A DNA stretch of 64,000 nt from contig CP169075.1 of assembly GCA_041891055.1 (NCBI GenBank), forward strand, positions 52,001 to 116,000. Reading direction: 5' to 3'. The notes beneath the pieces were generated by a model. It made no database searches. It saw only the letters and a list, made by a program, of their open reading frames with translations, and had not been told where the DNA came from. Within the stretch, counting starts at the first letter, position 1; each line of letters starts with the position of its first letter. This document shows, in pieces, positions 6,725 through 58,075 of the stretch. Source of the DNA: Halorutilales archaeon Cl-col2-1. Its GTDB lineage: Archaea > Halobacteriota > Halobacteria > Halobacteriales > Afararchaeaceae. Made by a program: the position numbers and the translations under genes.

Positions 6725-6740
6725 AGTCTTTGATTTGCTG

Positions 6741-19380: not shown

Positions 19381-19412
19381 TGTTAAGCTGAGTCAGGTGA
19401 CTCAGGTTAACA
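19381..19412. repeat. Palindrome B (32 bp)
   Basis: TGTTAAGCTGAGTCA-GG-TGACTCAGGTTAACA, preceded by CTCCAGAGCGGGGG, ~30 bp after the pcn stop. Confidence 0.9.
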
Positions 19413-19429
19413 GTGATTTACAATCCAAG

Positions 19430-20508
19430 GGCTTTGGTGAATCGCCATACGTAACTTGATTTACTGTTTTACGGCATGTTTGATGTTGTAGACAGAGCAG
19501 ATCAGGACGAGTTCACGAAACTCTCTGTACCAGGCACGCGCACGCACGGCTTCACGAAGCATAGCTTCGTTAGCTGAAAATCTTCGATTTTAAGCAGTGC
19601 CGAGCGTGCGCTTGATGTTTGAGAAGACGGTTTCAGACATGGATCTTTGACCATAGAGAGACCCATCGACCCTGGTGTCGCAAATCTGAGATTTGCGTAC
19701 ATCCAAAAATCAGAGATTTTTGAATATGCTGTGTACCTGATCGATGGGTCGGAACTCACGGTGTTTGGTGAGTTGTCTTACGTCTTCTTCTCGTAATTTT
19801 TCACGTAGTTTCATCCAGTCATAGCCTTTGTCGGCAGCGAGGGTATGCAGGTCACCTGCGTTCCGCAGTGCGACCTGCAAGCCGAGCTGAGTATCATGGC
19901 GTTTCTCAGTCGTGCAGTGAAGGTCAAGGACTGCTTGAGTTTCTGTGTCGACGAGGGCTGTAGCTTTGAGTGTCTGGACACGGTAATCCGTCCTACGGCA
20001 GTAGTGTTTGCTAGCGTTTTCTCGGTCGAAGTAAGTAGAGTCCATAGCAGTGTGACCGGTGTTGTCATGTAGTTCCGAGGAGAGACGGAGAAGTACTCTC
20101 CATACACCCATCTCTATCCTATCGAATGCTTTGACTAGGGTTGAATGGTGAGGGAGATCGTCCTCTTCGAGGCCGATCTCCTCAAGGATTCTTGGCATCT
20201 CGCTCAACAGATCGAGTGCTTCTCGGTAGGATTTCTCCAAGTAAATCCGTAGACAGTGGAGAGAAACGATGGCGTAATCCGCGAAGCCGCCACCCTGCTC
20301 TGGGGCGGCGGCTTCGCTCCGACCACCAACAGCGTTTTTAGCTAATGTCACGACTCTATCAGTGAAGTGCTGTGAATCGAAGATTCACATGCGTTGGAAC
20401 GCTTGCGTTCCAAAACGGGAGATTTTGGACATGTCACCGAAAACTTCCCGCTTCATCTCCTTTGCATTAGTGGCTTAATCCAACGCAGTCTAGTGATTCA
20501 CTAGAGCC
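19430..20508 (-). mobile_element. IS5-family element; transposase pseudogene (19461-20432) interrupted by three 45-51 bp twin-hairpin insertions
   Basis: TIRs; MSKISR|FTDRVVTLAKNA, AMDSTYFDR, LAADKGYDW, ETVFSNIKRTLG; insertions at ~19551-19595, ~19678-19728, ~20367-20415. Confidence 0.9.
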
Positions 20509-35772: not shown

Positions 35773-37281
35773 TCGCTAGTTGTCCACTCTGGCTTAGTGG
35801 CCCAGCCGCTGACACGTAGTACTGAGTGAAGCGGGTGAATCAGGAATCTGATTCATCCGCTGTCCGGATATATCCGTTGTGAACCTACCAAAGCTCAAAC
35901 GGGTTCTTACAGATCCGGACGACTTCATTACGAACGGCCAGTTGAAATCTCTTGCTCTGGAGGTACTGGAGTTAGTGCCGATGGAAGGAATCGAGGGCTC
36001 CGGCCTCGATTCCGAGGAAATCATGGAAGTGGTGCTCCGGGCTGCCGTTGACACGACATCAGCCAACGGCGTGACGACAAATACGAGCAACACACCGAAC
36101 AGGAAAACGGTCATGGACTGGCTTCACAAACTGGAGAAAGACGCCATGCTGGACGCTGTCAACGACATCCTCGCGTTGCTGGCAATGACGGTTCTCGACC
36201 GCGACCGGTCGAGAACCATCTGTCTCGACTTCATGGACAATCCGTTCCACGGGCATCCCGAGGACGAAACCGAGTTCAGAAGGATGCAAGCACGCGACGG
36301 GACGACGAAGTGTCACCGCTACTGCACAGCGTTCGTCATCTCTCAAGGAAAGCCACTAACGTGGCGGTTGAACCGGTTGATGGCGAGGACAGCAAGGCCG
36401 ACGCGGTCGAGCGCGTGCTCGCCCGCGTCAAGACGTATCCATTCGAGATCGAGCAGATTCTCATGGATAGAGCTGCCTTCATAGGGGAGTTGATCGGTGT
36501 ACTTCGGGAAACAGCGCCGCCAGTCTTTCCGGTCAAGACCGGGAAAGACTCGCTCCGGAAGAAACTCTCCAACACCGCGTCACACATGACCGAAGAGACG
36601 ATCTGCGAAGGGAAGAAACACGAACAGACGTATCCACTGGCAGTGAACGTCACCTACCAGAATGGTGACCGCGGGAAGTCTGGTGTGAAAGCAACAGGAT
36701 ACGCGGCGTACGGTCTAAAAGACCGCACGCCCGCGCAAGTCGCTGCGATCTACGACAAGTGTTCACGGATAGAGAAGAGCTACGAGAAGTTCCGAGAAGC
36801 GCGTGCCCTGACAACAGCACCATCAACGACAATCCGGTTGTTCTACGTGGGCGTGGGATTTCTGTTAGAGCAATTGTGGCTCGTGTTGCAGTGGGCCGTG
36901 CTCGCCCGACCACGGCGTGGCGGGCGAGCACTTCCGGTGGCGTTCACGTTCAGTGATGTGTTTCTCCATGGGATCGAACAGGTGTTAGACGACGAACTCG
37001 GCTGGAAGGAGAAGCATCGGACGAACGGAGAAGGACTACCTCCAGGATACGACCACGGACTCGGTTGAGCCGCCTCGATTCAGGCGAAGCGAGGCTGGCG
37101 AACAGCGACATCTGTCTTTGGAGACCGATCTGAGCGACGACTACAGCCGAAACCAACTAGATTTGTGACCTTTCTTGACTCTCCGTGGCGTCAGAAGTGT
37201 ACTTCGTCTCGTATCGGCGTTTTTACCGTGTCAGACCGGACTCTTGATGCCACCGCGATCAAGAGAGTGGACAACTAGCGA
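35773..37281 (+). mobile_element. ISH3-family element with frameshifted transposase (35879-37068, shift ~36360)
   Basis: 18-bp TIR TCGCTAGTTGTCCACTCT / AGAGTGGACAACTAGCGA; CLDFMDNPFHG, ILMDRAAF, SRIEKSYEK; KPLT|AVEPV split across frames. Confidence 0.9.
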
Positions 37282-37669: not shown

Positions 37670-37862
37670 ATACCTATATCATTGGTTACTCAGTTAAAAC
37701 ATATGCAAATATACGTAGTATGCAAATATGCGTATGTTTAAGTGGCTAGAGATACAAGTCATTGTGTAAGAAGCACGATGCTCCGGACTACGGGATTTAG
37801 TTCTCGTAGAAGGAGGCGGGTGTAGGAGCACCCGCCGAGTGCTTCTCCAAGGTGAAGAAGCA

Positions 37863-38270
37863 ATGCAATCTACGAATACGACCCAGAAAGATGTATCGCT
37901 ATTAGAGCAACTGCTAGATGGACTACGCGTCGGCATAGGAGAGTCACATGACGAGTTTGTGGTCTGCGACAGATGCGGTACCTACCTACGTGAAGGCTCG
38001 GACGTAACCGCTTACGCTTACTCGCAAGACAAAGACGCCAGTTGGGACGTAAGAGGCGTCTACTGCAGTCACTGCTCTAAAACAGAGATATCCACAGAGA
38101 CGAAAGGCACAGAGGAAGCCGTCGTCCAGGCACATCTCGCCCTCCTCGAAGACGCAAAATACCAGACAGCGTCACTAGTACTCGCAGATCCCGAGGCACT
38201 CGATTACAGTCCAACTGAAGAAGGCACAGAACCCCAGACAGTCGCCGTCACAAAGAAGGAGGGTCACTAA
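37863..38270 (+). CDS. Zn-finger (CxxC..CxxC) protein
   Basis: CDRCG and YCSHC; ATG at 37863. Confidence 0.65.
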   Translation: MQSTNTTQKDVSLLEQLLDGLRVGIGESHDEFVVCDRCGTYLREGSDVTAYAYSQDKDASWDVRGVYCSHCSKTEISTETKGTEEAVVQAHLALLEDAKYQTASLVLADPEALDYSPTEEGTEPQTVAVTKKEGH

Positions 38271-38271: not shown

Positions 38272-38448
38272 ATGCAAGAGAGCACAGACCTCCAGAGGAT
38301 CCACTGTAAACACTGCGGCGAGTCACCTCGTCTCCATAGAGACGCCGATGACAGAGACTGTCTTGTAGCAAGATGTGACTGTGACTCTCCGAGGAGACTA
38401 CAGATCTACGATGCCGGAGTGCCACCTAAGTCATGGAGGGTCGAGTAA
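38272..38448 (+). CDS. Small Cys-rich protein (58 aa, below the ORF cutoff)
   Basis: MQESTDLQRIHCKHCGES..ARCDCD..SWRVE*; its stop overlaps the next ATG (TAATG). Confidence 0.6.
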   Translation: MQESTDLQRIHCKHCGESPRLHRDADDRDCLVARCDCDSPRRLQIYDAGVPPKSWRVE

Positions 38449-40010
38449 TGATCGATGTCGACGAGCTCGCCCTCGATAAGTACCAGGTCATGCCCGACCT
38501 CTCCAACGAAGAGTACGCCGCTCTAAAACGTGATATCAGAGAAAACGGAGTCAGAACCGACATCGATGTCGACGAAAACAATAACGTAATCGATGGGCAC
38601 CACAGAGTCCGAGCTTGCAGAGAGCTGAGCATAGAGAAGATCGAAGCCCGTGTCCATGTCGGACTATCCTCCAAAGAGAAACAAGATCTAGCGTGGCGTC
38701 TCAACATGCAGAGACGTCATCTCGAACAGGGACAGAAACGCGAGCTAGCGAAGGAGTATCTAATCGATAGCTGGGACGGCGAGACTACCGAGCGTGAGAT
38801 AGCTGATCTCCTCGGGATCGGAAAGAAGACGGTAAATAGAGCCAAAAAAGATCTCAGAGAAGCTGGTAAGCTGAGTCACCTGACTCAACTTACCACCAGC
38901 GAGAAAAAAGAGATCGTCAGAGAGTACATAGAAGATCATCCCGACGCATCAAACAGAGAAATAGCAGATAGCATCGACTGTGACGTCTCCCATGTAACTG
39001 TAGGTAGATGGCGTAAAGACAAAGATGACAGTGACTCAGACTGTGAAGACGTATCTGACTCTGACTCAAACTCGGACGAAGATGATAGTAACAGAGATGA
39101 TGAAGACAACCAGAACCAGAACACCGAGGACAGCGACGACGAAGACGAGAAATCCTCGCTAACTCTCCGTAATGCCACCGACAAAGAGCTAGAGAAGCTC
39201 CAGGAGATAAGGGAGAAAGCCGATGAAGGCAACGAGGTAGCGCAAAAACAACTAGAGAAACTACAGAGCAACAGCACCTCCATCCACACGGCTCATAAAC
39301 ACCTAGAGAAGCACGAAGCCGAAAAAGAAGTTGAGAAACAACGTCAGACCGACGGCGGAGCCCAGGAGTATCAACCCAAGATCACCCAGTCCCCCGCTCT
39401 GGAGTTCATACAGAAATACGAAGACAAGAGCGTCGACCTACTCCTAACGGATCCTCCCTATAGCACAGACGTCGAGGACATCGAGGAGTTCGCCGAAGAC
39501 TGGCTACCTGAAGCACTATCCAAAGTCAAAGATGACGGCTACGCCTATGTCTTCGTCGGTAGCTACACAGAAGAGATCCATGCCTACCTGTCTGTACTCA
39601 CGGACATAGACAGGTTCGAGAGTCAGATCTTGATCTGGACATACAAGAACACCCTCGGCAAAGTACCGAAGAATCGCTACTCACGCAACTACCAAGCAGT
39701 CCTCTACCTACGTGGATCCGAAACCCAAGAACTCAACGCCCCCAAGACCTCCGAGCAATGGGCAGTACAAGATATCAACGCACCTGACGGCAGGCACCAG
39801 CAAAAACACCACCGCTGGCAGAAGCCCGAAAAACTCATCGAACGCTTCGTGAGACACACAACCGAAGAAGGCGACCTAGTCGTCGATCCCTTCGCTGGCT
39901 CGGGCACTACTCTACTGACAGCCGCCGAACTTGCACGTGAAACGGAGGGGTGTGACAAAGACTCACAAGCCATAGAGACCGCCAGAGAGAGGGGGTGTGT
40001 CGTAGAATGA
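38448..40010 (+). CDS. ParB/Srx - HTH - HTH - acidic linker - beta-class N4C/N6A DNA methyltransferase fusion
   Basis: VIDGHHRVRAC, LNMQRRHL, TEREIADLLGIGKKTVNR, SNREIAD..VSHVTVGRWR, LTDPPY, QKPEKLIER, VDPFAGSGTT. Confidence 0.88.
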   Translation: MIDVDELALDKYQVMPDLSNEEYAALKRDIRENGVRTDIDVDENNNVIDGHHRVRACRELSIEKIEARVHVGLSSKEKQDLAWRLNMQRRHLEQGQKRELAKEYLIDSWDGETTEREIADLLGIGKKTVNRAKKDLREAGKLSHLTQLTTSEKKEIVREYIEDHPDASNREIADSIDCDVSHVTVGRWRKDKDDSDSDCEDVSDSDSNSDEDDSNRDDEDNQNQNTEDSDDEDEKSSLTLRNATDKELEKLQEIREKADEGNEVAQKQLEKLQSNSTSIHTAHKHLEKHEAEKEVEKQRQTDGGAQEYQPKITQSPALEFIQKYEDKSVDLLLTDPPYSTDVEDIEEFAEDWLPEALSKVKDDGYAYVFVGSYTEEIHAYLSVLTDIDRFESQILIWTYKNTLGKVPKNRYSRNYQAVLYLRGSETQELNAPKTSEQWAVQDINAPDGRHQQKHHRWQKPEKLIERFVRHTTEEGDLVVDPFAGSGTTLLTAAELARETEGCDKDSQAIETARERGCVVE

Positions 40011-40570
40011 GCTTTAGCGATGACCTAAAAAGTAGTGCCAACGCATTTGAGAAGGTAGTCTATCCCGAAATCGAGGGAGAGATAGACGGCAACGAAATCA
40101 TCCCCGTAGAAAACGTCCACACAGAATCCGATGTCCAGAAGCTCCTTGATACGAGAGCAGGGATAGATGCTCTCGTTCGGGACGAAAAAGGCAGACTGTA
40201 TGGAGTCGCAAGCCGCGTGCAGTATGGTGCTGACTGGGGGTCGTTTACAGTCCGAGGTTTTCGCTCTTCGGGATCCAAGACGGAGTACCGTAAACGGATA
40301 GAGGAGATAGAAGGCGACAAACACGCCATATATCCCTACTACACCTGCCAAGCATACGTAAAAGAGGGGCGTCTACTCAACGCGGCTGTCTGTAAAACCC
40401 AAGATCTCATAGAGTACATCGATCAAGGAGATTATCAGCAGGACTACGACGTCAAAATCTGTAATAAAGACGGAGACAGCCTACAGACTCTCTTTGTCGT
40501 GTTTTGGGGAGACTTCGTCGAAGAGCACGATCTGTATGTACACGATGCGAGTAACCTGAATTCGCTGTAA
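40007..40570 (+). CDS. Putative PD-(D/E)XK-fold nuclease coupled to the ParB-MTase
   Basis: ATGA overlap; LDTRAGIDALV..GVASRVQ; KTEYRKR. Confidence 0.55.
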   Translation: MSFSDDLKSSANAFEKVVYPEIEGEIDGNEIIPVENVHTESDVQKLLDTRAGIDALVRDEKGRLYGVASRVQYGADWGSFTVRGFRSSGSKTEYRKRIEEIEGDKHAIYPYYTCQAYVKEGRLLNAAVCKTQDLIEYIDQGDYQQDYDVKICNKDGDSLQTLFVVFWGDFVEEHDLYVHDASNLNSL

Positions 40571-40602: not shown

Positions 40603-41631
40603 ATGTCTAACAGACCAAAGATAAGCCTAAGTCTCTCCGAGCTAACACGCAGAGAGTTTCACACCGAGTTCTGGAGTCAGAACTTCGAGTTGCTCGGTCA
40701 AGCAGTCCAAAGAATAGTCAAAGAGAAAGAACTCACGACCTGGAGTCAACTGCCGTCGTACCTGTGGCGTAACGGCGTAACCGAGATGAATAGAGAGTAC
40801 GCCCTCGACATGGTAGCCTTCGAGTTCGAGAAAGAGACCTCGGTAGAGAGACTCAAAAACCTCACTCTTCTACTCGGTTCGGGTAAGAGGATCAGCCCCG
40901 TCGACGAAGAGCTATATGGCACATACAACACCACCAAAGACGACGTCTTCGCACCCTTCAAGATCCTCGATATAGCCGGCATACAGCCCGAAATCGAGAT
41001 AGATATACCCTCCAGAGCGGTGGGTGGGATCGATAGAAAGTTCTTCGACGAATTGGGCGAATACGTCGACTTAGAGATAGAGGTCAGCCTTGGAGATATA
41101 GACGAACCTAGACAACTACCGGAGTATGTTTGCCTGAAAGTCAAGACAGATCCATCGAAGAAGGACAAGTACGGATACTGGCATAAAAGACAAGACCTCC
41201 ACAAAGCCGTAGAGACTCCGGACAGAGCGCTGAGAGTACTCGAGGACATAGCCGATGATCTACAGACCAAGAGCAACGACTACGAGTACAACTATGAGCA
41301 ACTACAGAAACTAACCCACCTCGACAGGAGTACTCTGATAACCTATACGAGGCTCTTAGAGGCGAATAATCTGATAGATAGGTCTCGGGACGAAAGACGT
41401 GTAAAGATCTCTCTGACCGACGTAGGTGTAGCTTTCACGAGTCTAGTGATGAACATCGACGTAAAGAACAGAGAGTATCTCAGAATAGCTCTCAGAGCAT
41501 TCTCTGTAGATGTTTTTCTTACCTCGTCTTCGAAACTGGATACTCTAGAAAGAGAAGATTTTGACACGGATACCAGCAGAAGAAGACAGAGTAAGCCTCC
41601 TCCAAAGACAAAGAAAAGTAAGGTAATCTAG
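40603..41631 (+). CDS. Hypothetical protein with C-terminal winged HTH (possibly a reduced RepH-like plasmid protein)
   Basis: YNYEQLQKLTHLDRSTLITYTRLLEANNLIDR..ISLTDVG wHTH; the RepH resemblance is only an impression. Confidence 0.5.
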   Translation: MSNRPKISLSLSELTRREFHTEFWSQNFELLGQAVQRIVKEKELTTWSQLPSYLWRNGVTEMNREYALDMVAFEFEKETSVERLKNLTLLLGSGKRISPVDEELYGTYNTTKDDVFAPFKILDIAGIQPEIEIDIPSRAVGGIDRKFFDELGEYVDLEIEVSLGDIDEPRQLPEYVCLKVKTDPSKKDKYGYWHKRQDLHKAVETPDRALRVLEDIADDLQTKSNDYEYNYEQLQKLTHLDRSTLITYTRLLEANNLIDRSRDERRVKISLTDVGVAFTSLVMNIDVKNREYLRIALRAFSVDVFLTSSSKLDTLEREDFDTDTSRRRQSKPPPKTKKSKVI

Positions 41632-42233: not shown

Positions 42234-43220
42234 ATGTCCAACTCAGAAGTGTTGGAGAGGTTGCAGGAAATGACTCCTCGAGAGTTCGAGCACTTCGTAG
42301 CCGATCTCTGGGAGCGTCGAGGTTGGGATACAGCTGAAGTTAGCGATAAAGGTGCTGACGCAGGTGTTGATGTCGTCGCTAGAAAAGACGGTGTCTTCGA
42401 AGAGAAGCAGGTTATACAAGCTAAGCGATATTCTCGGAAGAAGAATAACAAAGTGGAGGGGCCCGAGGTTCAGCAGTATGCTTCTCTCCCAGACCAGACA
42501 GGTGCAGATAGTGTCGTGATAGTTACTACAGGGAGATTTACAGATCCTGCTAAAGAACGTGCCAATGATCTTAATGTCAAGACAGTAGATGGAGACGATA
42601 TCCTCGAGATGATAGAGAAACACAACTCCGGGGATCTCGTCGAAGAATATGCTCCTACGATGGAAGAGATCAAGGCGTCCGAAAGTCCAACATCGGGATC
42701 GAGGTCGAGTCCAGCTACAGCGGGAGGTGATAGTAGCGACTCAGATTCCAATGTTGGAGGAGTAGTAGTACTACTGGTTATCTTGCTGGGTGCTGCCTTC
42801 GTCTTCGGAGGTGGGGGTGGGGGAGGAACTACAGGATCTCCATCTACGGACGGTGGCTCTCCGGTAGCGAGTGGATCTATGGACAGTTTAGATGTCACTG
42901 TTGAAAACGCTAAGTCCGTAGAAGGCTACGCTCTTGTGAAACTGAGTATCGAGAACACAGGTAGTAGTCCCCAGTCCTTTCCGAGTGGTACGAGCATGAA
43001 TTTGGTACACAACGGCTCGACTGAGTTCTCTACTACGTATGACAATATGAGTATAGGCGGGCGCGAGTACGTGAATTACCAGTCGTTGAGTGGATCTTTA
43101 GAGTCGGGGCAGTCTACCTCAGGATGGATGATCTATGACATCGGTGAAGAGGTCTCATGGGAGAATGCTAAGATAGAATACGATGGTGAGATGGGTAGCT
43201 TTGAGTTGAAAATGGGTTAG
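42234..43220 (+). CDS. Mrr-family restriction endonuclease - TM helix - C-terminal DUF4352-like beta domain
   Basis: PREFEHFVADL, DAGVDVVA, VIQAKRY; VGGVVVLLVILLGAAFVF; SLESGQSTSGWMIYDI. Confidence 0.82.
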   Translation: MSNSEVLERLQEMTPREFEHFVADLWERRGWDTAEVSDKGADAGVDVVARKDGVFEEKQVIQAKRYSRKKNNKVEGPEVQQYASLPDQTGADSVVIVTTGRFTDPAKERANDLNVKTVDGDDILEMIEKHNSGDLVEEYAPTMEEIKASESPTSGSRSSPATAGGDSSDSDSNVGGVVVLLVILLGAAFVFGGGGGGGTTGSPSTDGGSPVASGSMDSLDVTVENAKSVEGYALVKLSIENTGSSPQSFPSGTSMNLVHNGSTEFSTTYDNMSIGGREYVNYQSLSGSLESGQSTSGWMIYDIGEEVSWENAKIEYDGEMGSFELKMG

Positions 43221-43282
43221 AGAAGAAGCTAACGAACGTTTGTTTCTAGAGAATTCACCGAAGATGTTGGTTAGCTCAAGAG

Positions 43283-44044
43283 TCAATCTAGTTCTAATTC
43301 AGCCCAATTCCAGAATTCCTCAGGTGTACTGTAAATCACCTCACCGTGACCTCCTGTGTCGTGTACTTCAGAATGGCAACTAGGACAAAGGGGAACAACA
43401 TTCTCCTCTTCAGCAGCCCCTTTGTCATCAACTGGCTGCACATGATGGATTTTACATTGTGAAAGACGGTTTCTGAATTCACCACATCCAACACATGCCC
43501 CATAATCATCTAATATTTCCTTCCGACGAACCATATCCACCTGTTCAACTCTCCGTTTCGCAGCATTATTTTGTAGTTTCACTTGACCTTCTTTTTCATC
43601 CCAAACAAATCTTCGAACATATACTTTATGTGCATCTGTTGCCTTCGCAATTCGGTAAACACCAGGGTCTCTTCCAAATACATGGATTAGAACGGCTATC
43701 TTTTCTTGCTTCTTGCCACTTGGACAGACATCATTTATTACTCTATCTAACAATGATAGAATCTCTTCATCAGATTCTTTTTTAATAAGTTCCTTTTGTA
43801 GAGATCCAATATCAAGGTCATCAGGGATCGAGTATTCAACTTTCTCTGGGTCTTTGGTTTCTCCATTTGCGATTCTTATTGCGAGTTTCTCACCCACTCC
43901 GTCAATCTGCGTTATTTCTTCGACATCTGCCCTCTCGAGTCTTTCAACCGATCTGAAAACATGCAAAAGATCTTCAGCTTTAGAGTGTCCACAACCCTCG
44001 TAATGATTCTTCAAATACGAAATCGAATTGGATTCAGAACCCAT
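43283..44044 (-). CDS. HhH + HNH endonuclease
   Basis: IDGVGEKLA (HhH); CVGCG..HHVQP..ENVVPLCPSCHSEVH. Confidence 0.85.
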   Translation of the reverse strand: MGSESNSISYLKNHYEGCGHSKAEDLLHVFRSVERLERADVEEITQIDGVGEKLAIRIANGETKDPEKVEYSIPDDLDIGSLQKELIKKESDEEILSLLDRVINDVCPSGKKQEKIAVLIHVFGRDPGVYRIAKATDAHKVYVRRFVWDEKEGQVKLQNNAAKRRVEQVDMVRRKEILDDYGACVGCGEFRNRLSQCKIHHVQPVDDKGAAEEENVVPLCPSCHSEVHDTGGHGEVIYSTPEEFWNWAELELD

Positions 44045-44142
44045 ACACTCAGAATATAAGATAAGTCATATTATAATCTATTGAAATCGTCAATAACTGA
44101 AAGTTATCTGAGAGGGTCTCAAAGAGTCATAGTATCTCTGAG

Positions 44143-44223
44143 TACTAACCAACGAATCTAAAATTTGTCTATAGATGTTGGTTAGCCCAAGTGTTAATCT
44201 GAGTCACCTGACTCAGCTTAACA
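44143..44223. repeat. Site A (44143-44187) directly adjoining palindrome B (44192-44223)
   Basis: TACTAACCAACG-N21-TGTTGGTTAGCC; TGTTAATCTGAGTCA-CC-TGACTCAGCTTAACA. Confidence 0.85.
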
Positions 44224-44380
44224 TATATCCATCTACTCCGAATACTCAAGTAATATTTGCCCATAATATTCAAAACGAGGAGTTATCTTGAGATAGCTGG
44301 GTGATGAAGACATATCTGTCAAATATTGCCTTGTCTTTTTCAAAGAGTTTAAACACTTATATCTGTAAATTTTACTCAAG

Positions 44381-44836
44381 ATGACATACGAGAACCTTGA
44401 TCTCAAAATCATAAACCTACTCGAGGACGATGCACGTAGAAGTCTTAGGAGCCTAGCCGAAGAGCTCGATGTCTCGGTCACAACTGTAAGCAACCATCTT
44501 GAGAACATGCAAGAGGAGGGTATAGTAAAAGGCTTCAAACCAGTCGTCAACTACGACGAACTCGGTTACGGCGTCACAGCCACAGTGATGATAAAAGCCG
44601 AGGGTAACAGCATCCTCGATCTCACAGAAGACCTCAAAGACATAGACTCGTTCTTGAGTGTCTATGAGGTCACAGGAGAGTTCGACATAATCGCTATAGG
44701 CAAGTTCGAGAGCACGGAGGCAATGAACAACGTAATCAAGAACCTCTTAGAGAATCCCAACATAGCTGAGACCAACACCAACGTCGTCTTAGAAACTCAC
44801 AAAGAAAACGAAGACATCGAGTTCGAAGTGAACTAG
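44381..44836 (+). CDS. lrp: Lrp/AsnC transcriptional regulator
   Basis: DARRSLRSLAEELDVSVTTVSNHL; VYEVTGEFDII. Confidence 0.92.
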   Translation: MTYENLDLKIINLLEDDARRSLRSLAEELDVSVTTVSNHLENMQEEGIVKGFKPVVNYDELGYGVTATVMIKAEGNSILDLTEDLKDIDSFLSVYEVTGEFDIIAIGKFESTEAMNNVIKNLLENPNIAETNTNVVLETHKENEDIEFEVN

Positions 44837-45114
44837 GTTTCTGTAGTTTCTTCTCACAGAGTATCGTCATACGCACGTCTTATTTTTTACAGATATAGAC
44901 AGAAAGTATTTAACACATCTAAGTATACTCATGTTTGGGGGTTGTTGAGGACTAGATTCAGGGATTATTCCAATCCCCGCCCTCCTTCCAATAACCATTT
45001 TTAGGATGCTCCTTTCCAGAGCGGGGTGATTGTACTAGCTAACCAACACTCCTAGAGAATCTTCGAAAATGTTGGTTAGCTCAAGGACTAATCCATCCAA
45101 GGAGTGTTTCCACT

Positions 45115-45596
45115 AACACCACCGTGTCAAGTATTTCAAGTCAAAGATTTTTTTAAGTACACACACACCCCACTATGTCAAGTATTAGAGAAGAAAACTA
45201 GCTAACTCAATTAAGCTGTCGTTAAACTCTTATCAGACTCTTCTTCACTTTCTATCTGACCTTATACTAACTAACTAACATGTCAGTAATATTATACTAC
45301 TCTAGAAATAGTATTATATATATAGAACCCAGATGATCCAGACGAAACCAAGCCTATCATAGGGAAATATTCTTCCTTATTTTTCTATTTCTTTTAATCA
45401 GATCAAAGATCTTTTTATCTATTCAACGACCTTTAGCACTCATTCCTACGTCTTCTTGCGTTTATACTTGACATGGTGGGGTGTGTGGAGTGAATATTCC
45501 TGCAGAGCGTTTCTCCAAGTTATACTTGACATGGTGGGGTGGGGGTCATTTATAAAGAACCCCATTTACTTGACATACTTGACATACTTGACACTA
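45115..45596. promoter_or_regulatory. Replication origin 2 (G-string ORBs, AT-rich DUE)
   Basis: CACACCCCACTATGTCAAGTA inverted against two ATACTTGACATGGTGGGGTG; (TACTTGACA)x3 before orc1. Confidence 0.85.
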
Positions 45597-45634
45597 CGGT
45601 TTTATATACTGTTAGTCATAATACCATTCCTAAG

Positions 45635-46882
45635 ATGGGAGTCTTCGAGAAGAAAAATACAATCTTTGAGAACGAGGATGTATTCAGAGACGATTATCAG
45701 CCCGACAAGATCTATGAGAGAGACGAAGAACTAGATGACTACATCGCCGCTTTACAGCCTGTCGTAAATGGAGCAATCCCTCGTAACATCTTCCTCTACG
45801 GAAAAACCGGTGTCGGCAAAACGGTAGCTACGAGATTCCTAATGGATCAGCTCAAGCAAGATATCGACGATGGCATAGATCTAAGCATCGTTAACATGAA
45901 CTGCACTAATCTCAACTCCACCTATCAGGTTGCCATCAACCTCGTTAATAAGCTGAAAGAAAAACAGGGCAAATCAGAGATAAAGACTAGCGGCTATCCA
46001 CAGCAGGATGTCTTCAATATGCTCTATGATGAACTCGATGAGTTAGGAGGCACTATTCTAATTGTCCTCGACGAGATCGACAACATCGGTAGTGATGATA
46101 CACTTCTCTACGAGCTTCCTAGAGCACGTGCTAATGGATACGTCGACGATGCAAAGCCCGGAGTTATTGGGATAAGTAATAAACTCTCGTTTAAGAGAAA
46201 TCTTTCCTCTAAGGTCAAAGACTCCCTCTGTGACGAGGAGATAAACTTCTCTCCGTATGATGCTAATCAACTACGTGAGATCCTCTCGAGAAGGGCCGAA
46301 AAAGGATTCAAGGATGGTGTGTTAGGAGAGAGCGTTATACAGCTCGCTAGTGCCCTCGCTGCTCAGGATAGGGGGAGTGCGAGACAGGCTCTTGATCTTC
46401 TGTATAAAGCCGGTGATATAGCACGTAGATCTGATTCTGATACAGTCGAGGAAAAGCATCTCAAGAAGGCTGATAGGGAGCTTGAGAAGGATCAGATAAA
46501 GGAGGGCATCGATACTCTAACCACCCAAGGTAGACTTACTCTTCTTACTGTAGTTAAACTGAGTCTGAAAGATGATCCTCCTTTCAGAACCCGCGATATC
46601 TATCCAGAATACAGAGATCTTGCACGGAGAGGATTTGATATTGATCCTCTCGTGAGGAGAAGAATGCATGACCATCTCAAGGATCTCGGCATGCTGGGTA
46701 TACTCGAGATATACGAGAGATACGAGGGTAAACAAGGTGGGAGTTACTACGAGTACGAGCTTGATATCCCTCTCAACAGTGCTGTAGAAGCCTTCGGGGA
46801 ACAAGTAGGTACAGATCAAAGACACAGGATAAATCTGACTGATGACATCAAGAGCCTCATAAAACGTAATGGGTTGATGTAG
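45635..46882 (+). CDS. orc1: Orc1/Cdc6 replication initiator
   Basis: YGKTGVGKT, VLDEID, LLYELPRA, PYDANQLREIL, C-terminal wHTH; start MGVFEKKN at 45635. Confidence 0.95.
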   Translation: MGVFEKKNTIFENEDVFRDDYQPDKIYERDEELDDYIAALQPVVNGAIPRNIFLYGKTGVGKTVATRFLMDQLKQDIDDGIDLSIVNMNCTNLNSTYQVAINLVNKLKEKQGKSEIKTSGYPQQDVFNMLYDELDELGGTILIVLDEIDNIGSDDTLLYELPRARANGYVDDAKPGVIGISNKLSFKRNLSSKVKDSLCDEEINFSPYDANQLREILSRRAEKGFKDGVLGESVIQLASALAAQDRGSARQALDLLYKAGDIARRSDSDTVEEKHLKKADRELEKDQIKEGIDTLTTQGRLTLLTVVKLSLKDDPPFRTRDIYPEYRDLARRGFDIDPLVRRRMHDHLKDLGMLGILEIYERYEGKQGGSYYEYELDIPLNSAVEAFGEQVGTDQRHRINLTDDIKSLIKRNGLM

Positions 46883-47026
46883 TTAGTTGGGTTCGAGTAG
46901 CTAACCAACACCTCTAGAGAGCTTTCGAAAATGTTGGTTAGCTCCCCCAAGGTAACCACGGTGATATATCTGAGTCTTCCCTTAACCTCTCGACCTCGAC
47001 GCCCACGATCCCGTTGAAGCTGTCCA

Positions 47027-47458: not shown

Positions 47459-49624
47459 ACTTCAGTCCCTACAAGGGTTCATCTGTAACATTGTTAATTT
47501 CTGATTGTAGCCACTTCAAAAACTTGCTTCAACCCCACAAGGGTTCATCTGTAACGGAGATACAATAAGAGTGATCTGGACTTCATCTAACGGCTTCAAC
47601 CCCACAAGGGTTCATCTGTAACGTCACCTTCTTGGTCTTGGCTTTCTCCTGAGGATGAAGCTTCAACCCCACAAGGGTTCATCTGTAACGGATACCGATG
47701 AGTACGATCTGCCCCCAGCGGATGAGGCTTCAACCCCACAAGGGTTCATCTGTAACCCCGAGTGCGGATTCGTGGACGACGGTCGCCTCACTGCTTCAAC
47801 CCCACAAGGGTTCATCTGTAACTTTTCTCTACGTACTCTTTAGTATCCTCTTTAGGGAAGCTTCAACCCCACAAGGGTTCATCTGTAACGGGGACATCAC
47901 GCACTATGACGGGAGAGGACATCTACAGCTTCAACCCCACAAGGGTTCATCTGTAACAACTACGATGCAGCAAATGAAAACGTTTCGATAGCAGCTTCAA
48001 CCCCACAAGGGTTCATCTGTAACGATCTCATAGGAGCCGATCTCAGAGGAGCCGATCTCGCTTCAACCCCACAAGGGTTCATCTGTAACTCATCGTACAC
48101 GTTTAATGCAAACTCCATGTCCTCAGGCTTCAACCCCACAAGGGTTCATCTGTAACCGAAAACGGCTATGTTGAATGGTACCTAGTTGATGGCTTCAACC
48201 CCACAAGGGTTCATCTGTAACGATCTAATATGAGCAAACAAGAACGCCGAGAACGAGCGGCTTCAACCCCACAAGGGTTCATCTGTAACTTTGCGAAGCC
48301 CGTACGATTCGAGGTACGCCCATTTTCCCATGCTTCAACCCCACAAGGGTTCATCTGTAACGAGGCACGCAACTCCTACGAAATCCGACCACAGGGGCTT
48401 CAACCCCACAAGGGTTCATCTGTAACTCACACCGAGGCTTGTGGCGACCGCGCAGTCCGCACACGCTTCAACCCCACAAGGGTTCATCTGTAACGTTAGG
48501 CTCAGATTGTAGGTCTTGATGTATGTTCTTTGCTTCAACCCCACAAGGGTTCATCTGTAACGCACCAACATTCTCAGCGGCGTCGGGATCGCCTGACTGC
48601 TTCAACCCCACAAGGGTTCATCTGTAACCAGCGACGGACTCGGCGTATTTGCGCGAATGGACGCTTCAACCCCACAAGGGTTCATCTGTAACGAAAAAGA
48701 CGTCGAAGGCATGACGGAGACGGGGTGGCTTCAACCCCACAAGGGTTCATCTGTAACTGAGTGTAACGGGGTGTCTGTCGGCTTCCTGGTACTTGCTTCA
48801 ACCCCACAAGGGTTCATCTGTAACGACGCGTGGCTACTCGCGTATTATGCGTGCGCGTGAGCTTCAACCCCACAAGGGTTCATCTGTAACTTTTTGTTTT
48901 ATTATCGTTATTTATCTAACTATATAAGGCTTCAACCCCACAAGGGTTCATCTGTAACTGCTCCTCAACTGTTCTTCTATGTCTTCGAGTCCGTAGCTTC
49001 AACCCCACAAGGGTTCATCTGTAACGGAGCAATCGGGAGTGTCACGGAACCCTCCCTGAAAGCTTCAACCCCACAAGGGTTCATCTGTAACCGCTCGACA
49101 ATGTCGCCTCGAAAGCCAAAGTGGTGTGGCTTCAACCCCACAAGGGTTCATCTGTAACTCGGGAATAATCTCGGTGGACTGGGTGAGTTAGTCGGGCTTC
49201 AACCCCACAAGGGTTCATCTGTAACGACGTCGACGCTGAGGCATCCGATGACGACATCCGCGCTTCAACCCCACAAGGGTTCATCTGTAACAGGGGGGCG
49301 AGGGCGGTCACTCCCTCAACCCGCCTCGGCTTCAACCCCACAAGGGTTCATCTGTAACGTGCAAGATCTCATAAATGTCGGCGCGAGAATTCCCGCTTCA
49401 ACCCCACAAGGGTTCATCTGTAACTCAAGATAGTACCGAAGATATTGACGAGTTTAAAGCTTCAACCCCACAAGGGTTCATCTGTAACCGGGGGACTCTT
49501 CGGCGGCTCGAACTCAGACGAAGACGCTTCAACCCCACAAGGGTTCATCTGTAACAAGCACATGGTAGACTCAACTCACGAAAAGGCTCTGATAGCTTCA
49601 ACCCCACAAGGGTTCATCTGTAAC
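47459..49624 (-). CRISPR. Type I-B-type CRISPR array: 33 repeats, 32 spacers (~34-42 bp)
   Basis: 30-bp repeat GTTACAGATGAACCCTTGTGGGGTTGAAGC (minus strand); degenerate terminal repeat at 47459-47489; counted by hand. Confidence 0.98.
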
Positions 49625-52830: not shown

Positions 52831-53094
52831 CGCGGCCGTCGACCGTTCGATATCCCACCGATGGCTATTGAATCCTCCACGGTGGGATGTCCCTTCACAC
52901 GTTGCTCTCAAGTCCACAATTCTCGACGGTGAACAGGAGCTGGTCGAAATAGTCACCGAAACCAGCGCCGCTGACGGGTTCGACCGCTTCGATGGGAATG
53001 ATCTCTACTGCCACGCTCGAAGGCGCGGGCGGTCTCTCAGTCATAGCTAACCAACATTTTGGACAGATAATATAAAATCTGTTGGTTAGCTCAA

Positions 53095-53367
53095 TCAGTA
53101 GAGGTACTCTACGAGCTTGTCGACTCCTTCATCCACTTTGCCTTGTCTGACTTCACAGACATAGTCCGTAATCATCTCAGGCTGTACTGACAGTACGGAA
53201 TGGGGAACGATAGAGCTGTCTTTCGGTGCCTTCCTGTCGACGTAATCTTCCTCTGTCAGTGGGATTCTCTCTTCGTACCACGTCCTCGTTGTTAGTCCCA
53301 TCTTGAACGGGTCTGAAGCGAGTACGACATCACCGCGTGAAAGGTTAGAGAAGTCCTTATCCTTCAT
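53095..53367 (-). pseudogene. PemK/MazF-like toxin with an apparent in-frame deletion
   Basis: RGDVVLASDPFK joined directly to MGLTTRTW; the RPxxV(I/L)S catalytic strand is absent. Confidence 0.6.
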
Positions 53368-53686
53368 TTTCTCCTGCGTCTAACCACTCGCTACGGTCTT
53401 CTTCTCCTAGCTTTTCGTCGAGGAAAGACGAGGCTTGGTGATACTGGTAGGCGTCTCTTACCTTCTGTATGTCGCCTATCGTCCAGTAGGGTGGCTTGTG
53501 CTCGACTAGTCCCCGATCTCTGAGTCTCTTGAGTACTGGATGTATTGAATTAGAGTCTATACCCGTCTCTTCGACTATCTCCTTGGCTTTGTAGGCTTTG
53601 TCTCTGTTCTCTACGAGAAACTCGACGACTAGCTCCGAGTTAGTCTTAGGCTCCCGTTCCTCGAACTCACTCTTCTCTATCGGCAT
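53357..53686 (-). CDS. wHTH antitoxin-like protein
   Basis: AYKAKEIVEETGIDSNSIHPVLKRLRDRGLVEHKPPYW; overlaps the toxin start. Confidence 0.75.
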   Translation of the reverse strand: MPIEKSEFEEREPKTNSELVVEFLVENRDKAYKAKEIVEETGIDSNSIHPVLKRLRDRGLVEHKPPYWTIGDIQKVRDAYQYHQASSFLDEKLGEEDRSEWLDAGENEG

Positions 53687-54299
53687 TAGTTATGAATACG
53701 CCTTCGGGACTCTTGTATCTTTGTATCATTGTATTTACACGGATGGTCTTTTAGTCTGACCACCCAGCAAAGACGACTCCCCCACAGACGAGAATTCACT
53801 GTGGTCAACCTTGGGATAAGTGTGTTCTCCGTCAGAGCTAACCAACAGATCTAGAGATTCGCCAGAAATGTTGGTTAGCTGTTCAGACCTCACTTCTAGG
53901 GGTACCTCCTCCTATATTAGACGTTAGCCCCGGAATACAGGCTATTTTACCCGTCAGACTCGCATCACCCCTACAAAACCTGGGGGTGTTGACCACGGGG
54001 TAGATCTCGACCCATGAGGAATCCTCAGAGGATGTTCTATCGGTCACGGTTCCCAATCTAAGCCTGTCGTAGCGAGCTACACGTGTAGCACACATGTAAT
54101 CTCACACGTATGCGGGCTATTTCAGACATGTACGTCTGACGTAGTTTTATCAAGCCACAGAATACTACTCAGTAATAGCAGATCAACACCACCGAATACC
54201 CGCTTAGTACACAGTATCAAGTAGAGAATAGAGAGTCACACCCGTACCATACACACGAACACCGAGGTATGAGAACGTCACAAGCAGGTATTACAAAGT

Positions 54300-54662
54300 A
54301 TGTCTAACGACAAGAGAAAGATCAGCATATCGCTTGACACAGACCTGATAGACCGTGTCGAAGAAGAGTACGACAACCGAAGCCAGGGTATTAGAGAACT
54401 CGTGAAGCAGGGTTTGGAGTACGATGAGCTTGAGGAGAAGCTCGCGGAGATGGAGGACGAGCTCAACCGCGTCAGAGCCGAGCGTGACGAGGCGAGAAAC
54501 CAGCTTGAAGATCTCCGTAATAGAGAAGACCGAGAGATAGTCGAGTATCGTGAGGACGTCCTCGACGCGATCTCGGACGAGAAGCGTGAGCTCAGGGATA
54601 GGATCAATGACCTCGAGGAGAAGCTCGAAGAAGAGGATGACTCAGGGTGGTTGCCTTTTTAG
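54300..54662 (+). CDS. RHH (CopG-like) plus coiled-coil protein
   Basis: KISISLDTDL..NRSQGIRELV then heptad-rich helix. Confidence 0.75.
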   Translation: MSNDKRKISISLDTDLIDRVEEEYDNRSQGIRELVKQGLEYDELEEKLAEMEDELNRVRAERDEARNQLEDLRNREDREIVEYREDVLDAISDEKRELRDRINDLEEKLEEEDDSGWLPF

Positions 54663-54919
54663 CCTTCACCACTGAAGTATGGGTTAACGAGAGTGGCGGA
54701 CTGTCCTTCTCGCCACCAGTCGACATCAAGGTCTTCTTTGAGTATTCGCCGAGGTAAGGTCATATAGTAGCCGCCTTTCTCGGTTTGGTGTTCTTCTCGG
54801 AGTACGGTCTTTCGTATGTATCTGAGTGTGAGATGTTTCTTATCGGATTCTTGACGTAGGAGGTCGTCTATGCGTTCTCGGTACTCACGGCGCACATCTT
54901 GTATGTTTTCGGCTGACAT
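54659..54919 (-). CDS. Hypothetical protein (86 aa)
   Basis: ORF with TTTAAATA box upstream; convergent 4-bp overlap. Confidence 0.5.
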   Translation of the reverse strand: MSAENIQDVRREYRERIDDLLRQESDKKHLTLRYIRKTVLREEHQTEKGGYYMTLPRRILKEDLDVDWWREGQSATLVNPYFSGEG

Positions 54920-55031
54920 GGTGAAAAATTATACTTCCTGTTATTTAAAGCTAATCAGGAGCATAGTTGGATTACATATTCGACATGGATAACCAACATT
55001 TTCGAAGACTCACTAGAAGCGTTGGTTAGCT

Positions 55032-55150
55032 CTCACGTCGAGGCGACACGTCAAACGCGCCGATCCACGCCCCAGCGCGTCTCACCTCGGGGTTTAGAGC
55101 CGTTGAGACAGCGAAGATTCGCGACTGACGGGTATGAGTCTGATATTAGA
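55032..55150. repeat. ~120-bp structured repeat following site A; second copy 59526-59645, diverged partial copy 58608-58668
   Basis: CTCACGTCGAGGCGACACG...CTGACGGGTATGAGTCTRATATTAGAG nearly identical in both full copies. Confidence 0.9.
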
Positions 55151-55480
55151 GTTAAGAGAAAACGAGGGGTGTACTCAAGACGAGCTTGTCGAAAAAGTCG
55201 ACGTAGAGGACGAACAAGCCGAGACAGCCGTCGAGAACTTGCTCACAAACGGGGTGATAATGGAGACCTCAGACGGGATGAGGGTGGTATAAACTCACTC
55301 GAACTCCTCAAGCTCCTCTATATCTGGTTTTTCCATCTCTTTTACATCCTCTATGTCTTCCTCAGACATATCTGTCTCTTCGAGGAGTTCATCTTGAAGC
55401 TTGGTGTGTTTTTCTGTCTTAGACATAACCAGTCACCTCTAACAGGTATTCTTCTCTCGTTCTGAGATAGTCTTCAGCAT

Positions 55481-57090
55481 TTGACATCCTCACCCGCCTG
55501 AAGGCGGTACGAATTCTTCGAATTCGTTAGCCATCCAGATCAAAGATCTGGAGACGTATGCTGAGGTTCCCTCAGCATGCTCGTGAATCAAAGATTCACG
55601 AACGGGGTGAATCCCAGTTGGGATATTAAGGTTTGAAGTCTACCCAACGGCTTCTTGTGGTTCGAATCCGCAAGACCGATCATACAGGTAGACCCCGGGT
55701 TGTGCCAAACAACCGATACTCCTATCTTCTTGCTCAAAGCAAGAAGACTCAGAGTTACCTTCGGACTTCTGTCTTATATTTTCAGCTCCGTTAACATCCG
55801 AGTTAGCTACCGTATCACAGTCATCACAAACATATAGTCCACGTTCAACTCTCTGGTTACCATCGAGCTTACCACAGACACAACACGTCTTTGACGTGTT
55901 CTCTTCGTCTATCCTCTCTAGCTCAATACCACTCATCCTCGCCTTGTACTCTAGCATCCCGGTAAAGCGGTCGAACGCCCACTTGTGCAGATTCAGGTTA
56001 CCTGAGTCCCCCCAGTTTCTGGCTTCTCCATCCTCGTCCTGACGAATATCCCCAAGATCGCCTACGGCGATCTTTCCAACGTCTCTCTTCTTACATTCGT
56101 CTACCATGTGTTTAGACAGTGAATGGAGGAAGTGTCTACGTCTCTCTGACTGTAAGTGGTCTAGACGAGTACGCTTGTTACCGTCCGACTTATCGAGTTT
56201 AGCTTTCTCTTTCTCGAAGTAGTAGTTGTTCTGGCTGAGTTCGTTACCGGGGTAGAGAACGGTATCGCCGTTCTCGAACGAGAGAGCAGCGAAGTTACTG
56301 ATACCTAGATCGATTCCTACAGTCTCTTCTCCCGAGTCTTCTACTTCTATCTCTTTCTGTACGACTAGGTGTAACTCCCACTTTTCTTCCTTTTCGTCGT
56401 ATACAGCACGAACCTGCTGTATACTTCCGTCTATCTCGTTGTCTGGTCTGTGTAAGTCGTACTCTATGAGGATGAAGTCGCTACGTTCTTCTACTTGTTT
56501 GTGATTCTTGCCTTTAGAGAGACGTAGTCTGTTATTGTCAGAATCGTGTTTTATACCACGATTCTTCCATGTGACCGTACTCCTAGGATGTTCTTCGTGG
56601 ACTAGATTACCAAGGTCATCGTAGTACCAACGTTTGCGGTAGCCAGGAGGATTATCCCTGCCGTCGTCGGAGCCGTACCAAGACTGGTAGGCTTCAGAAA
56701 GCTCTTCTAGAACTTTCTGACTGGACTGTGAATGTAAGTCCTCGTATCTTTCGTGTTCTTTCAACTCGGTCTTCAACGTATCTTCTTCAGGGATCTCTCC
56801 TGTCTTTTGCCAGACTTCTCTAGTGTAGTATCTGGCGACATTCCATAGTTTCGAGGCAGACCAACCATGCCTGTCTAAATCACTCTCTACTTGAGAGTGA
56901 TTTAGTATCTCGGCTGTTACTGTTAGGTTGGTCTCCATGACTACACGTAGTTATTGTATTCGTATATTATTAAATCTTACTTGAATATGAGTTTCGTTGA
57001 ATATCCAGTTATGTCTATTAGAATGGTTTGGTGAGTAGTTTAACGGATTCATCATGACCCTGAAGGGTCAGGTATTCTCCTGTACTACGT
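55481..57090 (-). mobile_element. tnpB: IS1341-type (tnpB-only) element; TnpB 55640-56938
   Basis: GIDLG, AVGDL, DEENTSKTCCVCG..CDDC, SDVNGAENI; left end ACGTAGTACAGGAGAATACCTGACCC after TTAT; right end GAGGATGTCAA with hairpin insertions. Confidence 0.9.
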
Positions 57091-57220
57091 ATAAGTGTTT
57101 GAGATAATGCTCAGGAAAGTCCTCGACGTCGTGTAGCTTCTTCCGGATCCTCTTACTCGTCTCTGTTTCGGCTTCTCGTAGCCAGTCGGCAGCACGCGCC
57201 GACACGACAACGTCGGTCAT
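57091..57220 (-). pseudogene. RelE/ParE-like toxin truncated by the tnpB element
   Basis: MTDVVVSARAADWLREAETETSKRIRKKLHDVEDFPEHYLKHL, then the IS left end. Confidence 0.7.
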
Positions 57221-57223
57221 CTT

Positions 57224-57559
57224 CTACTCTTCGAGCTCCTCGTCGAGTTCCTCTAAGGGTATGGCGTTTTCTCTGTCGACTTCCTCGACGCGTTTCTTAG
57301 CTTCTTCCGAGAGACGAGGTGCTACTTTAGCCCACCACACGACAGCGTTCGCACCTGCTTTCTTCTTTCCGACAAGGTCTTCCTCGTGCATATCCCTAAG
57401 TCGGCGGTAGACAGCGTCGCGACCGATAGGTAGTGCGTCAGCTAAGTCAGACGCAGTTAGAACGGGCTCATCGGCGCGGTCGAACAGTTTTAGTATATCC
57501 TGCTCGGTGACCTTCTCCTCGAATTTACCACCCTCGTCGCGAGTCCTTTCAGTCGACAT
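57224..57559 (-). CDS. HTH antitoxin
   Basis: LTASDLADALPIGRDAVYRRL..VVWW; C-terminal IPLEELDEEL; 3 bp before the toxin start. Confidence 0.75.
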   Translation of the reverse strand: MSTERTRDEGGKFEEKVTEQDILKLFDRADEPVLTASDLADALPIGRDAVYRRLRDMHEEDLVGKKKAGANAVVWWAKVAPRLSEEAKKRVEEVDRENAIPLEELDEELEE

Positions 57560-57919
57560 ACACGTTGTTATGCTCTTCTCCCACTTAACCGTTCATGTCG
57601 TAGTGAGTCGTTAACTTTAATACCATTCACTACGTAGTGAGTGGTAAGAGACGCAGGATGCCCTAGACGAGAACAACGACTGAGAGTATCAGGTATCTCT
57701 TTGTCTTCTTCACGCTTCTTTCGGGATACGCAGGTCAGTCCCAAGTAGCTTTCCCGTCTGAGCTAACCAACATTTTGGACAAATAGTATAAGATCTGTTG
57801 ATTAGCTAAGAGAAACACATCACCCGAGGTCAACTATAAGCTTACATCTGACCTCGAAGGCGTGGTCTTCGCCGTTAGAGTGGGAAAAGCTATAACAACC
57901 CACACTCCAAATTATAACT

Positions 57920-58060
57920 ATGTCCTTAGAAGAAGACGTCGACCATAACGGGGAAAAACTTGCCAACGGAGACACAGTATCAGAACGTGTTGAAAAGGTC
58001 GACATCGACGAAGAAGACACCTGTTCTACTGACGAAATGCGTGAGCTTCTCGGGCTTTGA
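57920..58060 (+). CDS. Small acidic antitoxin-like peptide (46 aa)
   Basis: MSLEEDVDHNGEK..CSTDEMRELLGL*, upstream of a RelE-like gene. Confidence 0.5.
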   Translation: MSLEEDVDHNGEKLANGDTVSERVEKVDIDEEDTCSTDEMRELLGL

Positions 58061-58075
58061 TTCTATTCTGTGTAA

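Follow-up and report, generated by a model that had tools for sequence, protein, structure and literature searches.

A palindrome of changing sequence at a fixed position within genes encoding ParB-methyltransferase fusions

The ParB-methyltransferase gene and its palindrome

The window analysed here is a 64,000-nucleotide stretch from Halorutilales archaeon Cl-col2-1 (assembly GCA_041891055.1, contig CP169075.1), a halophilic archaeon with a genome of 2.06 Mb, denoted G000. It corresponds to positions 52001-116000 of a 116-kb replicon (C2; 49.6% G+C); the chromosome of the same organism is termed C1, and a second genome of the same genus is termed G001. On the plus strand, at 38433-40010, the window encodes a protein of 525 residues (P0001) in which a putative ParB_N domain is followed by a first helix-turn-helix (HTH1), a linker, a second helix-turn-helix (HTH2), an acidic and coiled linker and an N6/N4 (CcrM-like) DNA methyltransferase. 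We refer to this protein as the ParB-methyltransferase. Within its open reading frame (ORF), at 38864-38895, lies a 32-bp palindrome, designated B, that consists of two 15-nt arms around 2 nt (15+2+15), with 14 of the 15 arm pairs matching. Translated in frame it reads G-K-L-S-H-L-T-Q-L-T.

The C-terminus of the protein is an N6_N4 methyltransferase, matching Pfam N6_N4_Mtase (PF01555) above the gathering score (100 bits against a cut-off of 26.7, residues 334-518), and the C-terminal dimerisation domain of ParB is absent. The closest named methyltransferase in NCBIfam is CcrM (NF050803, the GANTC adenine methyltransferase equivalog), for which the score of 75.6 bits does not reach the cut-off of 830. 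PHROG matches are to phrog_67 and phrog_498. Residues 115-145 are matched by HTH_24 and HTH_23, and in the NCBIfam search residues 115-195 resemble the bipartite HTH DNA-binding region of IS630 transposases. The N-terminus aligns with the Helicobacter ParB structure 4umk (E 0.0013).

An AlphaFold2 model built from 15 sequences has a mean predicted local distance difference test (pLDDT) score of 58.7, with block means of 61-90 for residues 1-200 and of 75-90 for residues 1-90. HTH1 is modelled as helices 120-127 and 131-143, and a coil at 144-154 leads into HTH2, which spans residues 155-200 (helices 155-168, 174-180 and 187-200); a disordered acidic stretch (199-243) and further helices precede the methyltransferase domain. 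The palindrome codes for the coil between HTH1 and HTH2 (residues ~144-154), and in the light of this model the inter-HTH linker is probably the part of the DNA-binding module that is most tolerant of sequence change.

A pattern search of both strands of the window placed B at 5939, 6829, 19381, 38864 and 44192 (10 matches at three or fewer mismatches). This confirms a model-generated earlier note on the same DNA, which had reported the copy inside the coding sequence and the four intergenic ones. No B match appeared in any of 100 dinucleotide-preserving shuffles of the window, and the palindrome is thus real and far from chance. When the in-gene copy is compared, as its reverse complement, with the copy at 19381, mismatches fall at positions 3, 8, 25 and 30, so that 28 of 32 positions are identical; positions 3 and 30 form a symmetric pair, G..C in one copy and T..A in the other. 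Both the degree of identity and the symmetric compensatory pair had been described in that note and were borne out.

Genome-wide there are ten copies of B, seven on C2 and three on C1, where two are intergenic and the third (C1:561161) lies inside a paralogous ParB-methyltransferase gene (65-67% identity). In the paralogue CTG/AGT is replaced by CTC/GGT on one arm and ACT/CAA by ACC/GAA on the other, and the dyad is retained; two paired changes in this palindrome are synonymous codons. The variant, B', is found nowhere else in the G000 genome. The orthologous gene in G001 has its own in-gene copy of B, and that genome holds three intergenic copies in addition. Paired changes preserve the dyad in all three genes, namely that of the window, its C1 paralogue and its G001 orthologue. 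Among the 401 genomes of the class that were scanned, B occurs only in G000 and G001, the same two that carry the ParB-methyltransferase gene; since both belong to one genus, this co-occurrence counts as a single independent case. B sites in genomes that lack the gene, which the earlier note would have taken as evidence against a site recognised by this protein, were accordingly not seen within this sample.

In sequencing data, 29-48% of the sampled words were matched by three DNA metagenome runs, which come from two studies, and no RNA run was among those listed. Contigs aligned to the gene are fragmented around the palindrome, where they break because the intergenic B copies map there; no difference is listed inside 38864-38895, and we draw no conclusion from these contigs.

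Palindromes at the same position in homologous genes

The N-terminal 200 residues of the ParB-methyltransferase find 69 proteins. The ParB_N-HTH module in proteins P0004-P0070 is joined to N6_N4, C5, MT-A70 or Dam-like methyltransferases or to DUF4326, or else stands alone; this DNA-binding head has repeatedly been joined to different enzymes. DNA for homologous genes was available from 29 metagenome loci, one viral contig, three phage genomes and one phage-plasmid. Four Halobacteria with ParB_N matches (G157, G316, G332 and G357) were left out, as their proteins form a different, single-HTH subfamily of ParB-methyltransferases that lacks the G-K-L linker. Profile scans of the genome contigs with two alignments found no relative, and a second viral scan returned methyltransferase-domain matches only.

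The in-gene palindrome is a hallmark of this gene family, its position being kept while its sequence differs. In the haloarchaeal-type relatives L010/L033 and L011 (30-45% identity) the same codons hold unrelated 32-mers that pair at 13 of 15 arm positions, and in L009 a 32-mer at these codons pairs at 11 of 15. The outer letters, TGG.AA…TT.CCA, are common to all six aligned haloarchaeal copies, although the inner sequences are unrelated; these outer letters are fixed because G145 is nearly invariant, and K146 invariant, among close relatives. Relatives from bacterial viruses carry palindromes of 21-32 bp directly 3' of HTH1. For example, phages vB_MseS-P1 and Rivra have a 10+1+10 palindrome, phage Ecliptus one of 11+1+11 and the viral contig one of 16+16, and plasmid pAtCFBP5507b has a perfect palindrome of 12+1+12. 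Metagenome relatives including L032, L024, L027 and L029 also have a palindrome at this position. In full-text searches of the literature we came across no account of such a palindrome being conserved within ParB-methyltransferase genes. The possibility that the in-gene palindrome is an in-frame mobile insertion was considered and rejected, as its position is fixed across distant homologues with different sequences.

Covariation between the arms was examined in the six haloarchaeal copies, in which 8 of the 15 pairs are altered on both sides. In this alignment 85.6% of cells are paired, compared with 69.4% in shuffles, none of 500 of which reached the observed value, and in controls in which the partner column was slid only 18-46% of cells are paired.

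Selection on the palindrome is also evident at the level of codons. In 11 of 36 homologous genes the 72-nt window at the aligned position has a score that 6% or fewer of such windows along the gene attain. When synonymous codons were shuffled with the protein held fixed, 5 or fewer of 200 shuffles reached the observed score in 13 of the 36 genes, which are related to one another and do not represent 13 independent events; the mean observed score is 6.58, against 4.28 for the synonymous shuffles. Both the window and the codon-shuffle tests understate L011, whose palindrome falls outside the 72-nt test window owing to an insertion in the alignment. These results bear on the possibility that the palindrome is simply a by-product of a conserved peptide motif, or a chance occurrence, with no function in nucleic acid. 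The peptides G-K-L-x-H and G-E-I-P are indeed partly conserved, and their codons have some built-in self-complementarity. However, in the 13 genes the observed score is seldom attained when codons are shuffled without altering the peptide, the amino acids encoded by the two arms change together (S/T, A/G, R/A, G/T) and 100 shuffles of the whole window contain no B-like match, so that this reading is already disfavoured and we consider it very improbable.

The geometry of the palindromes favours a dyad for a dimer on double-stranded DNA rather than a selected hairpin in the mRNA, because pairing of the arms stops only 0-2 nt short of the centre and the mismatches are not of the G·U type. In 17 of 18 palindromes only 0-2 nt are unpaired at the centre, which would leave no viable loop. 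Among the 24 arm mismatches in these 18 palindromes, two are G·U-compatible on the sense strand, eight are C·A and 14 are of other types. The alternative would be an mRNA hairpin that tunes translation, folding or stability of the ParB-methyltransferase message, with the intergenic copies acting as 3'-end hairpins behind cassette genes. Any such palindrome is able to fold, stop codons (of the DUF2240 gene in the window and of vapC in G001) precede intergenic copies of B by 9-30 nt, and Caulobacter parB is reported to contain a regulatory mRNA structure (PMC13371061). Nevertheless, besides the missing loop and the scarcity of G·U pairs, B is present in either orientation with respect to adjacent genes, and its intergenic copies are not followed by a T-tract. 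An Rfam search returned nothing at the repeats. A role as an RNA structure is in our judgement doubtful.

We searched for a second copy of the in-gene palindrome in five phage, plasmid or viral records (three complete records, 50,000 of the 55,646 bp of Ecliptus and a viral record of 35.7 kb) and found none in any of them when 3-5 mismatches were allowed. A lone site within the gene is thus the normal condition, and dispersed copies are seen only in the genus of G000 and G001. The earlier note had proposed that homologous genes would have a variable palindrome between the HTHs that matches dispersed repeats on the same replicon: the variable palindrome is indeed present, but a dispersed match is confined to this genus and the palindrome is the sole copy in all five records.

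Intergenic copies, neighbouring genes and other features of the window

Although the intergenic copies of B lie where the earlier note had placed them, they are not free-standing, and they belong to the larger genome-wide set given above. They form the end of a composite repeat of ~125 bp in which a middle part of ~40 nt separates B from a second palindrome, A, whose 12-nt arms enclose a spacer of ~20 nt. In our reading the middle part resembles the boxes of origin recognition box (ORB) type found at both origins of the window. The first composite copy (5853-5970, plus strand) has A at 5853-5896, the ORB-like middle part and B at 5939-5970; the second (6742-6860, plus strand) has A, the middle part and B at 6829-6860, ending 9 nt from the stop of a DUF2240 gene (6870-7328, minus strand). 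Together they bracket a region (6250-6725) in which the truncated N-terminal part of orc1 (6250-6438, minus strand) adjoins origin 1 (~6440-6725), the latter recognised from what appear to be inverted ORB-like boxes around an AT-rich stretch. The third copy (19381-19412) retains part of the middle part and is located 30 nt after pcn (18617-19351) and before an insertion sequence (IS) transposase gene, and in the fourth (44165-44223), which is flanked by the genes for an HNH endonuclease and Lrp/AsnC, half of palindrome A directly abuts B (44192-44223). Origin 2, with ORB-like inverted boxes (~45100-45545), and its orc1/cdc6 gene (45539-46882) occupy 45100-46882 on the plus strand, and one window copy of B is 0.9-1.3 kb from this origin. 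Where the preceding gene can be named (DUF2240 in the window, vapC in G001), B is the part of the composite closest to its stop. The genes that the composites follow are cassette-like.

The four intergenic copies in the window thus agree with the association with replication loci drawn in the earlier note, two flanking origin 1 and the truncated orc1, one following pcn and one near origin 2, but the association does not extend to the other four, which adjoin NucS/TnpB, an HNH gene, an integrase of ~200 residues and a Vut_1 transporter gene. The possibility that intergenic B is a remnant of the gene was rejected, as the flanks show no mutual similarity. The plasmid encodes its own PCNA (window 18617-19351) and NucS endonuclease (G000 C2:38204-39004), with a B copy near each, and a DDE transposase (19710-20351) adjoins the copy behind pcn. 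Directly behind the truncated orc1 N-terminus, and adjoining origin 1, is a tandem array of nine perfect hairpins (6001-6223) with stems of 7-9 bp, loops of exactly 3 nt and a period of ~24-28 nt, in which all stem sequences are different.

Half-sites of palindrome A are more numerous, with 54 at one mismatch or fewer (34 on C2, 19 on C1 and one on C3). They often bracket single genes, including HNH, Lrp and orc1, at a spacing of 0.8-1.9 kb (window 43264-46943 and 53046-59525), an arrangement that looks like a gene-cassette array. Small genes of the Phage_integrase family, encoding ~200 residues, are found close to several of the repeats: at C1:1302306-1302857 the middle part and B start 23 nt after the stop, and A sites lie within ~200 nt of the genes at C2:27555-28058 and C3:7468-7971. 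Furthermore, G001 carries an insertion of ~960 bp (L055, G001:C7 730-1690) that is absent at the syntenic place in G000 (C1:542549-542568) and contains genes for an AbrB-type antitoxin and a PIN (VapC-like) toxin (vapBC) together with a B-middle-A composite. It is conceivable from these observations that the intergenic copies of B, if not all B copies, contribute to sites at which small tyrosine recombinases cross over or recognise DNA and that B-middle-A marks the end of mobile gene cassettes, the likeness of B to the in-gene palindrome being the result of shared ancestry or site capture; B can also be read as 13-6-13 with an asymmetric centre. On the other hand, the ends of the single insertion compared between G001 and G000 do not coincide with A or B, and four near-identical composites on one replicon are unlike an att site. 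Nor does recombination explain the palindromes in phages, which are unique in each genome and lie in intact genes, and several palindromes are perfectly symmetric around 0-1 nt and would give a recombinase no direction. We therefore regard a recombination site as unlikely overall, although for the composite repeat it is still a serious competitor.

The ParB-methyltransferase gene is part of a four-gene module that is conserved on C2, on C1 and in G001. Upstream is a gene for a Cys-rich protein of 143 residues with no family assignment (37839-38270, plus strand), and downstream are genes for proteins of 191 residues (39995-40570, plus strand) and 342 residues (40603-41631, plus strand), the latter with a weak MarR-like winged helix. 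The 191- and 342-residue proteins are found only in G000 and G001. The former had been called a coupled nuclease in the earlier note (there 40007-40570), a designation that was not upheld: it has no Pfam, NCBIfam or PHROG match, and in the ESM Atlas it groups with viral hypothetical proteins, PD-(D/E)XK appearing in 13-18% of the members of more distant clusters, which is a weak lead only. No ParA gene was found next to the ParB-methyltransferase gene, and its neighbours have no family match. A related module at C1:1037759-1039250 is without the methyltransferase gene and has an A site nearby and no copy of B.

It could be argued from this arrangement that B is a genuine protein-binding site read by a different product, such as the 342-residue winged-helix protein, the 143-residue Cys-rich protein or Orc1, and that the methyltransferase gene merely hosts it. 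Conservation of the module on two replicons and in a second genome would fit, as would the similarity that we see between the middle part of the composite and the ORB boxes of both origins. However, the position of the palindrome is kept in phage ParB-HTH genes with unrelated neighbours, two of the candidate partners are restricted to G000 and G001, and the copy of the module that lacks the methyltransferase gene has A sites and no B. A different reader seems to us rather improbable.

Several other features were noted in the window. An ISH3-family transposase, split over two overlapping ORFs (35879-37068), is located just upstream of the ParB-methyltransferase module. A clustered regularly interspaced short palindromic repeats (CRISPR) array with 32 repeats (Rfam CRISPR-DR24) occupies 47526-49624 on the minus strand, and no tRNAs were found in the window. 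Genes for defence and repair are densely packed at 3-34369 and 42234-44044 and include a UvrD and PD-(D/E)XK pair (AddAB-like), a DEAD helicase with MZB/DUF1998, a DUF4011 / MTES_1575 helicase-nuclease of 1896 residues, an SNF2 helicase, GmrSD, DUF1156, DUF7680, DUF499, Mrr and HNH.

A candidate site for the product of its own gene

In our view the palindrome is probably, though far from certainly, a double-stranded DNA site that lies within the coding sequence of its own reader. The ParB_N-HTH-linker-HTH module would most likely bind the palindrome as a dimer, in the manner of ParB and parS, KorB and OB or a repressor and its operator, at a site that occupies the codons of the flexible inter-HTH linker. 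Because the site lies in the linker codons of the reader's own DNA-binding module, site and reader would be inseparable by recombination. Where the in-gene palindrome is the sole copy, as in the phages and the chromosomal paralogue, binding may nucleate the enzyme on its own replicon, provide an intragenic roadblock for autoregulation, or do both. On C2 the extra copies in composite repeats, which lie close to both origins, to pcn and to other backbone genes, may act as added docking points, and the CcrM-like methyltransferase domain, at the end of an acidic and helical linker of ~130 residues, could methylate DNA near them.

Several observations weigh against this interpretation. The protein scores 18.9 bits for ParB_N (PF02195), below the required 26.3, and a genome-wide search gives 22.4 bits; its Box II is G-H-H-R opposite the G-E-R-R of 4umk. 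The sole ParA-like gene on C2, at 13859-14374, is 76 kb away. Independent haloarchaeal lineages with the palindrome are few, amounting to three strong cases and one weak one. The synonymous shuffles give no codon-level palindrome signal for 23 of the 36 homologues, and a soil clade with the peptide 'RKEIAKLKKL', whose domain content was taken from precomputed Pfam annotation, lacks a palindrome altogether. Between genes, B is coupled to palindrome A and the ORB-like segment and may be read there by a different protein. Finally, section 8 of a study of ParB-CTPase-fold proteins (PMC12704722, PNAS 2025) lists N6N4-methyltransferase fusions among the 50 proteins chosen and does not name them among its 11 nucleoside triphosphate (NTP) binders.

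A stronger proposal is that the protein is a self-addressed enzyme, for which the same 30 nt serve both as docking site and as codons of the inter-HTH linker, the linker itself lying over the centre of the site, and that a nucleotide-gated ParB clamp, starting from the in-gene site and on C2 also from the copies at origins, would carry the methyltransferase along its own replicon only, resulting in cis-restricted methylation of 'self' in archaea and phages. Any change in the site would then alter the reader, and therefore site and reader would co-evolve as a unit. We offer this proposal tentatively and think it improbable in its full form.

The likeness to ParB/Spo0J and parS is that a putative ParB_N-type domain is followed by an HTH, that the dyad site has one copy in the protein's own gene and that, on C2, further copies are located near replication origins. 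There are also clear differences. The systems differ in Box II, here GHHR; a DNA methyltransferase replaces the C-terminal dimerisation domain, there is no adjacent ParA, and the site measures 21-32 bp compared with 16 bp for parS, differs by lineage and is single in most relatives. Because an adjacent ParA and the C-terminal dimerisation domain were both looked for and found to be absent, we do not classify the protein as a partition ParB; it is a variant of the ParB-site theme, set apart from the partition family. Noc with NBS and KorB with OB are related protein-site pairs. A precedent for a site inside the gene of its reader is provided by Bacillus subtilis, in which parS-359 lies within parB (PMC4442127).

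Fusions of the ParB-CTPase fold to DNA methyltransferases, which are common in phages, plasmids and archaea, have been described as an architecture of unknown function that is enriched in phages, prophages and archaea (PMC12704722). The protein analysed here shares this architecture, in which a ParB fold is joined to an N6_N4 or MT-A70 methyltransferase. The main text of that paper contains no word beginning with 'palindrom', although its supplements may bear on this point; the present analysis adds a candidate site and places it within the gene.

Other families offer looser parallels. Methyltransferases of the SsoII type have an N-terminal HTH with which they repress their own promoter, and thus likewise combine a methyltransferase with a DNA-binding module for a palindrome distinct from the methylation target; their operators, however, are situated in promoters rather than in coding sequence, and they have no ParB domain. 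Other proteins act on a site within their own gene, examples being attP in the integrase genes of SSV-type viruses and pac in small-terminase genes; there too a cis site is physically linked to its reader on mobile DNA. These involve other protein families and reactions, and the ParB-methyltransferase gene, by comparison, stays intact.

A lineage-specific palindrome at a fixed position in the gene supplies a concrete and testable DNA target for each fusion of the ParB fold to a methyltransferase, and the pattern reaches from phages to an archaeal plasmid. Confirmed binding by the gene's own product would illustrate a way in which mobile elements keep a cis site linked to the protein that reads it and could account for the targeting of a methyltransferase to the replicon that encodes it, and the covarying sites and linkers would then constitute a natural data set for a recognition code.

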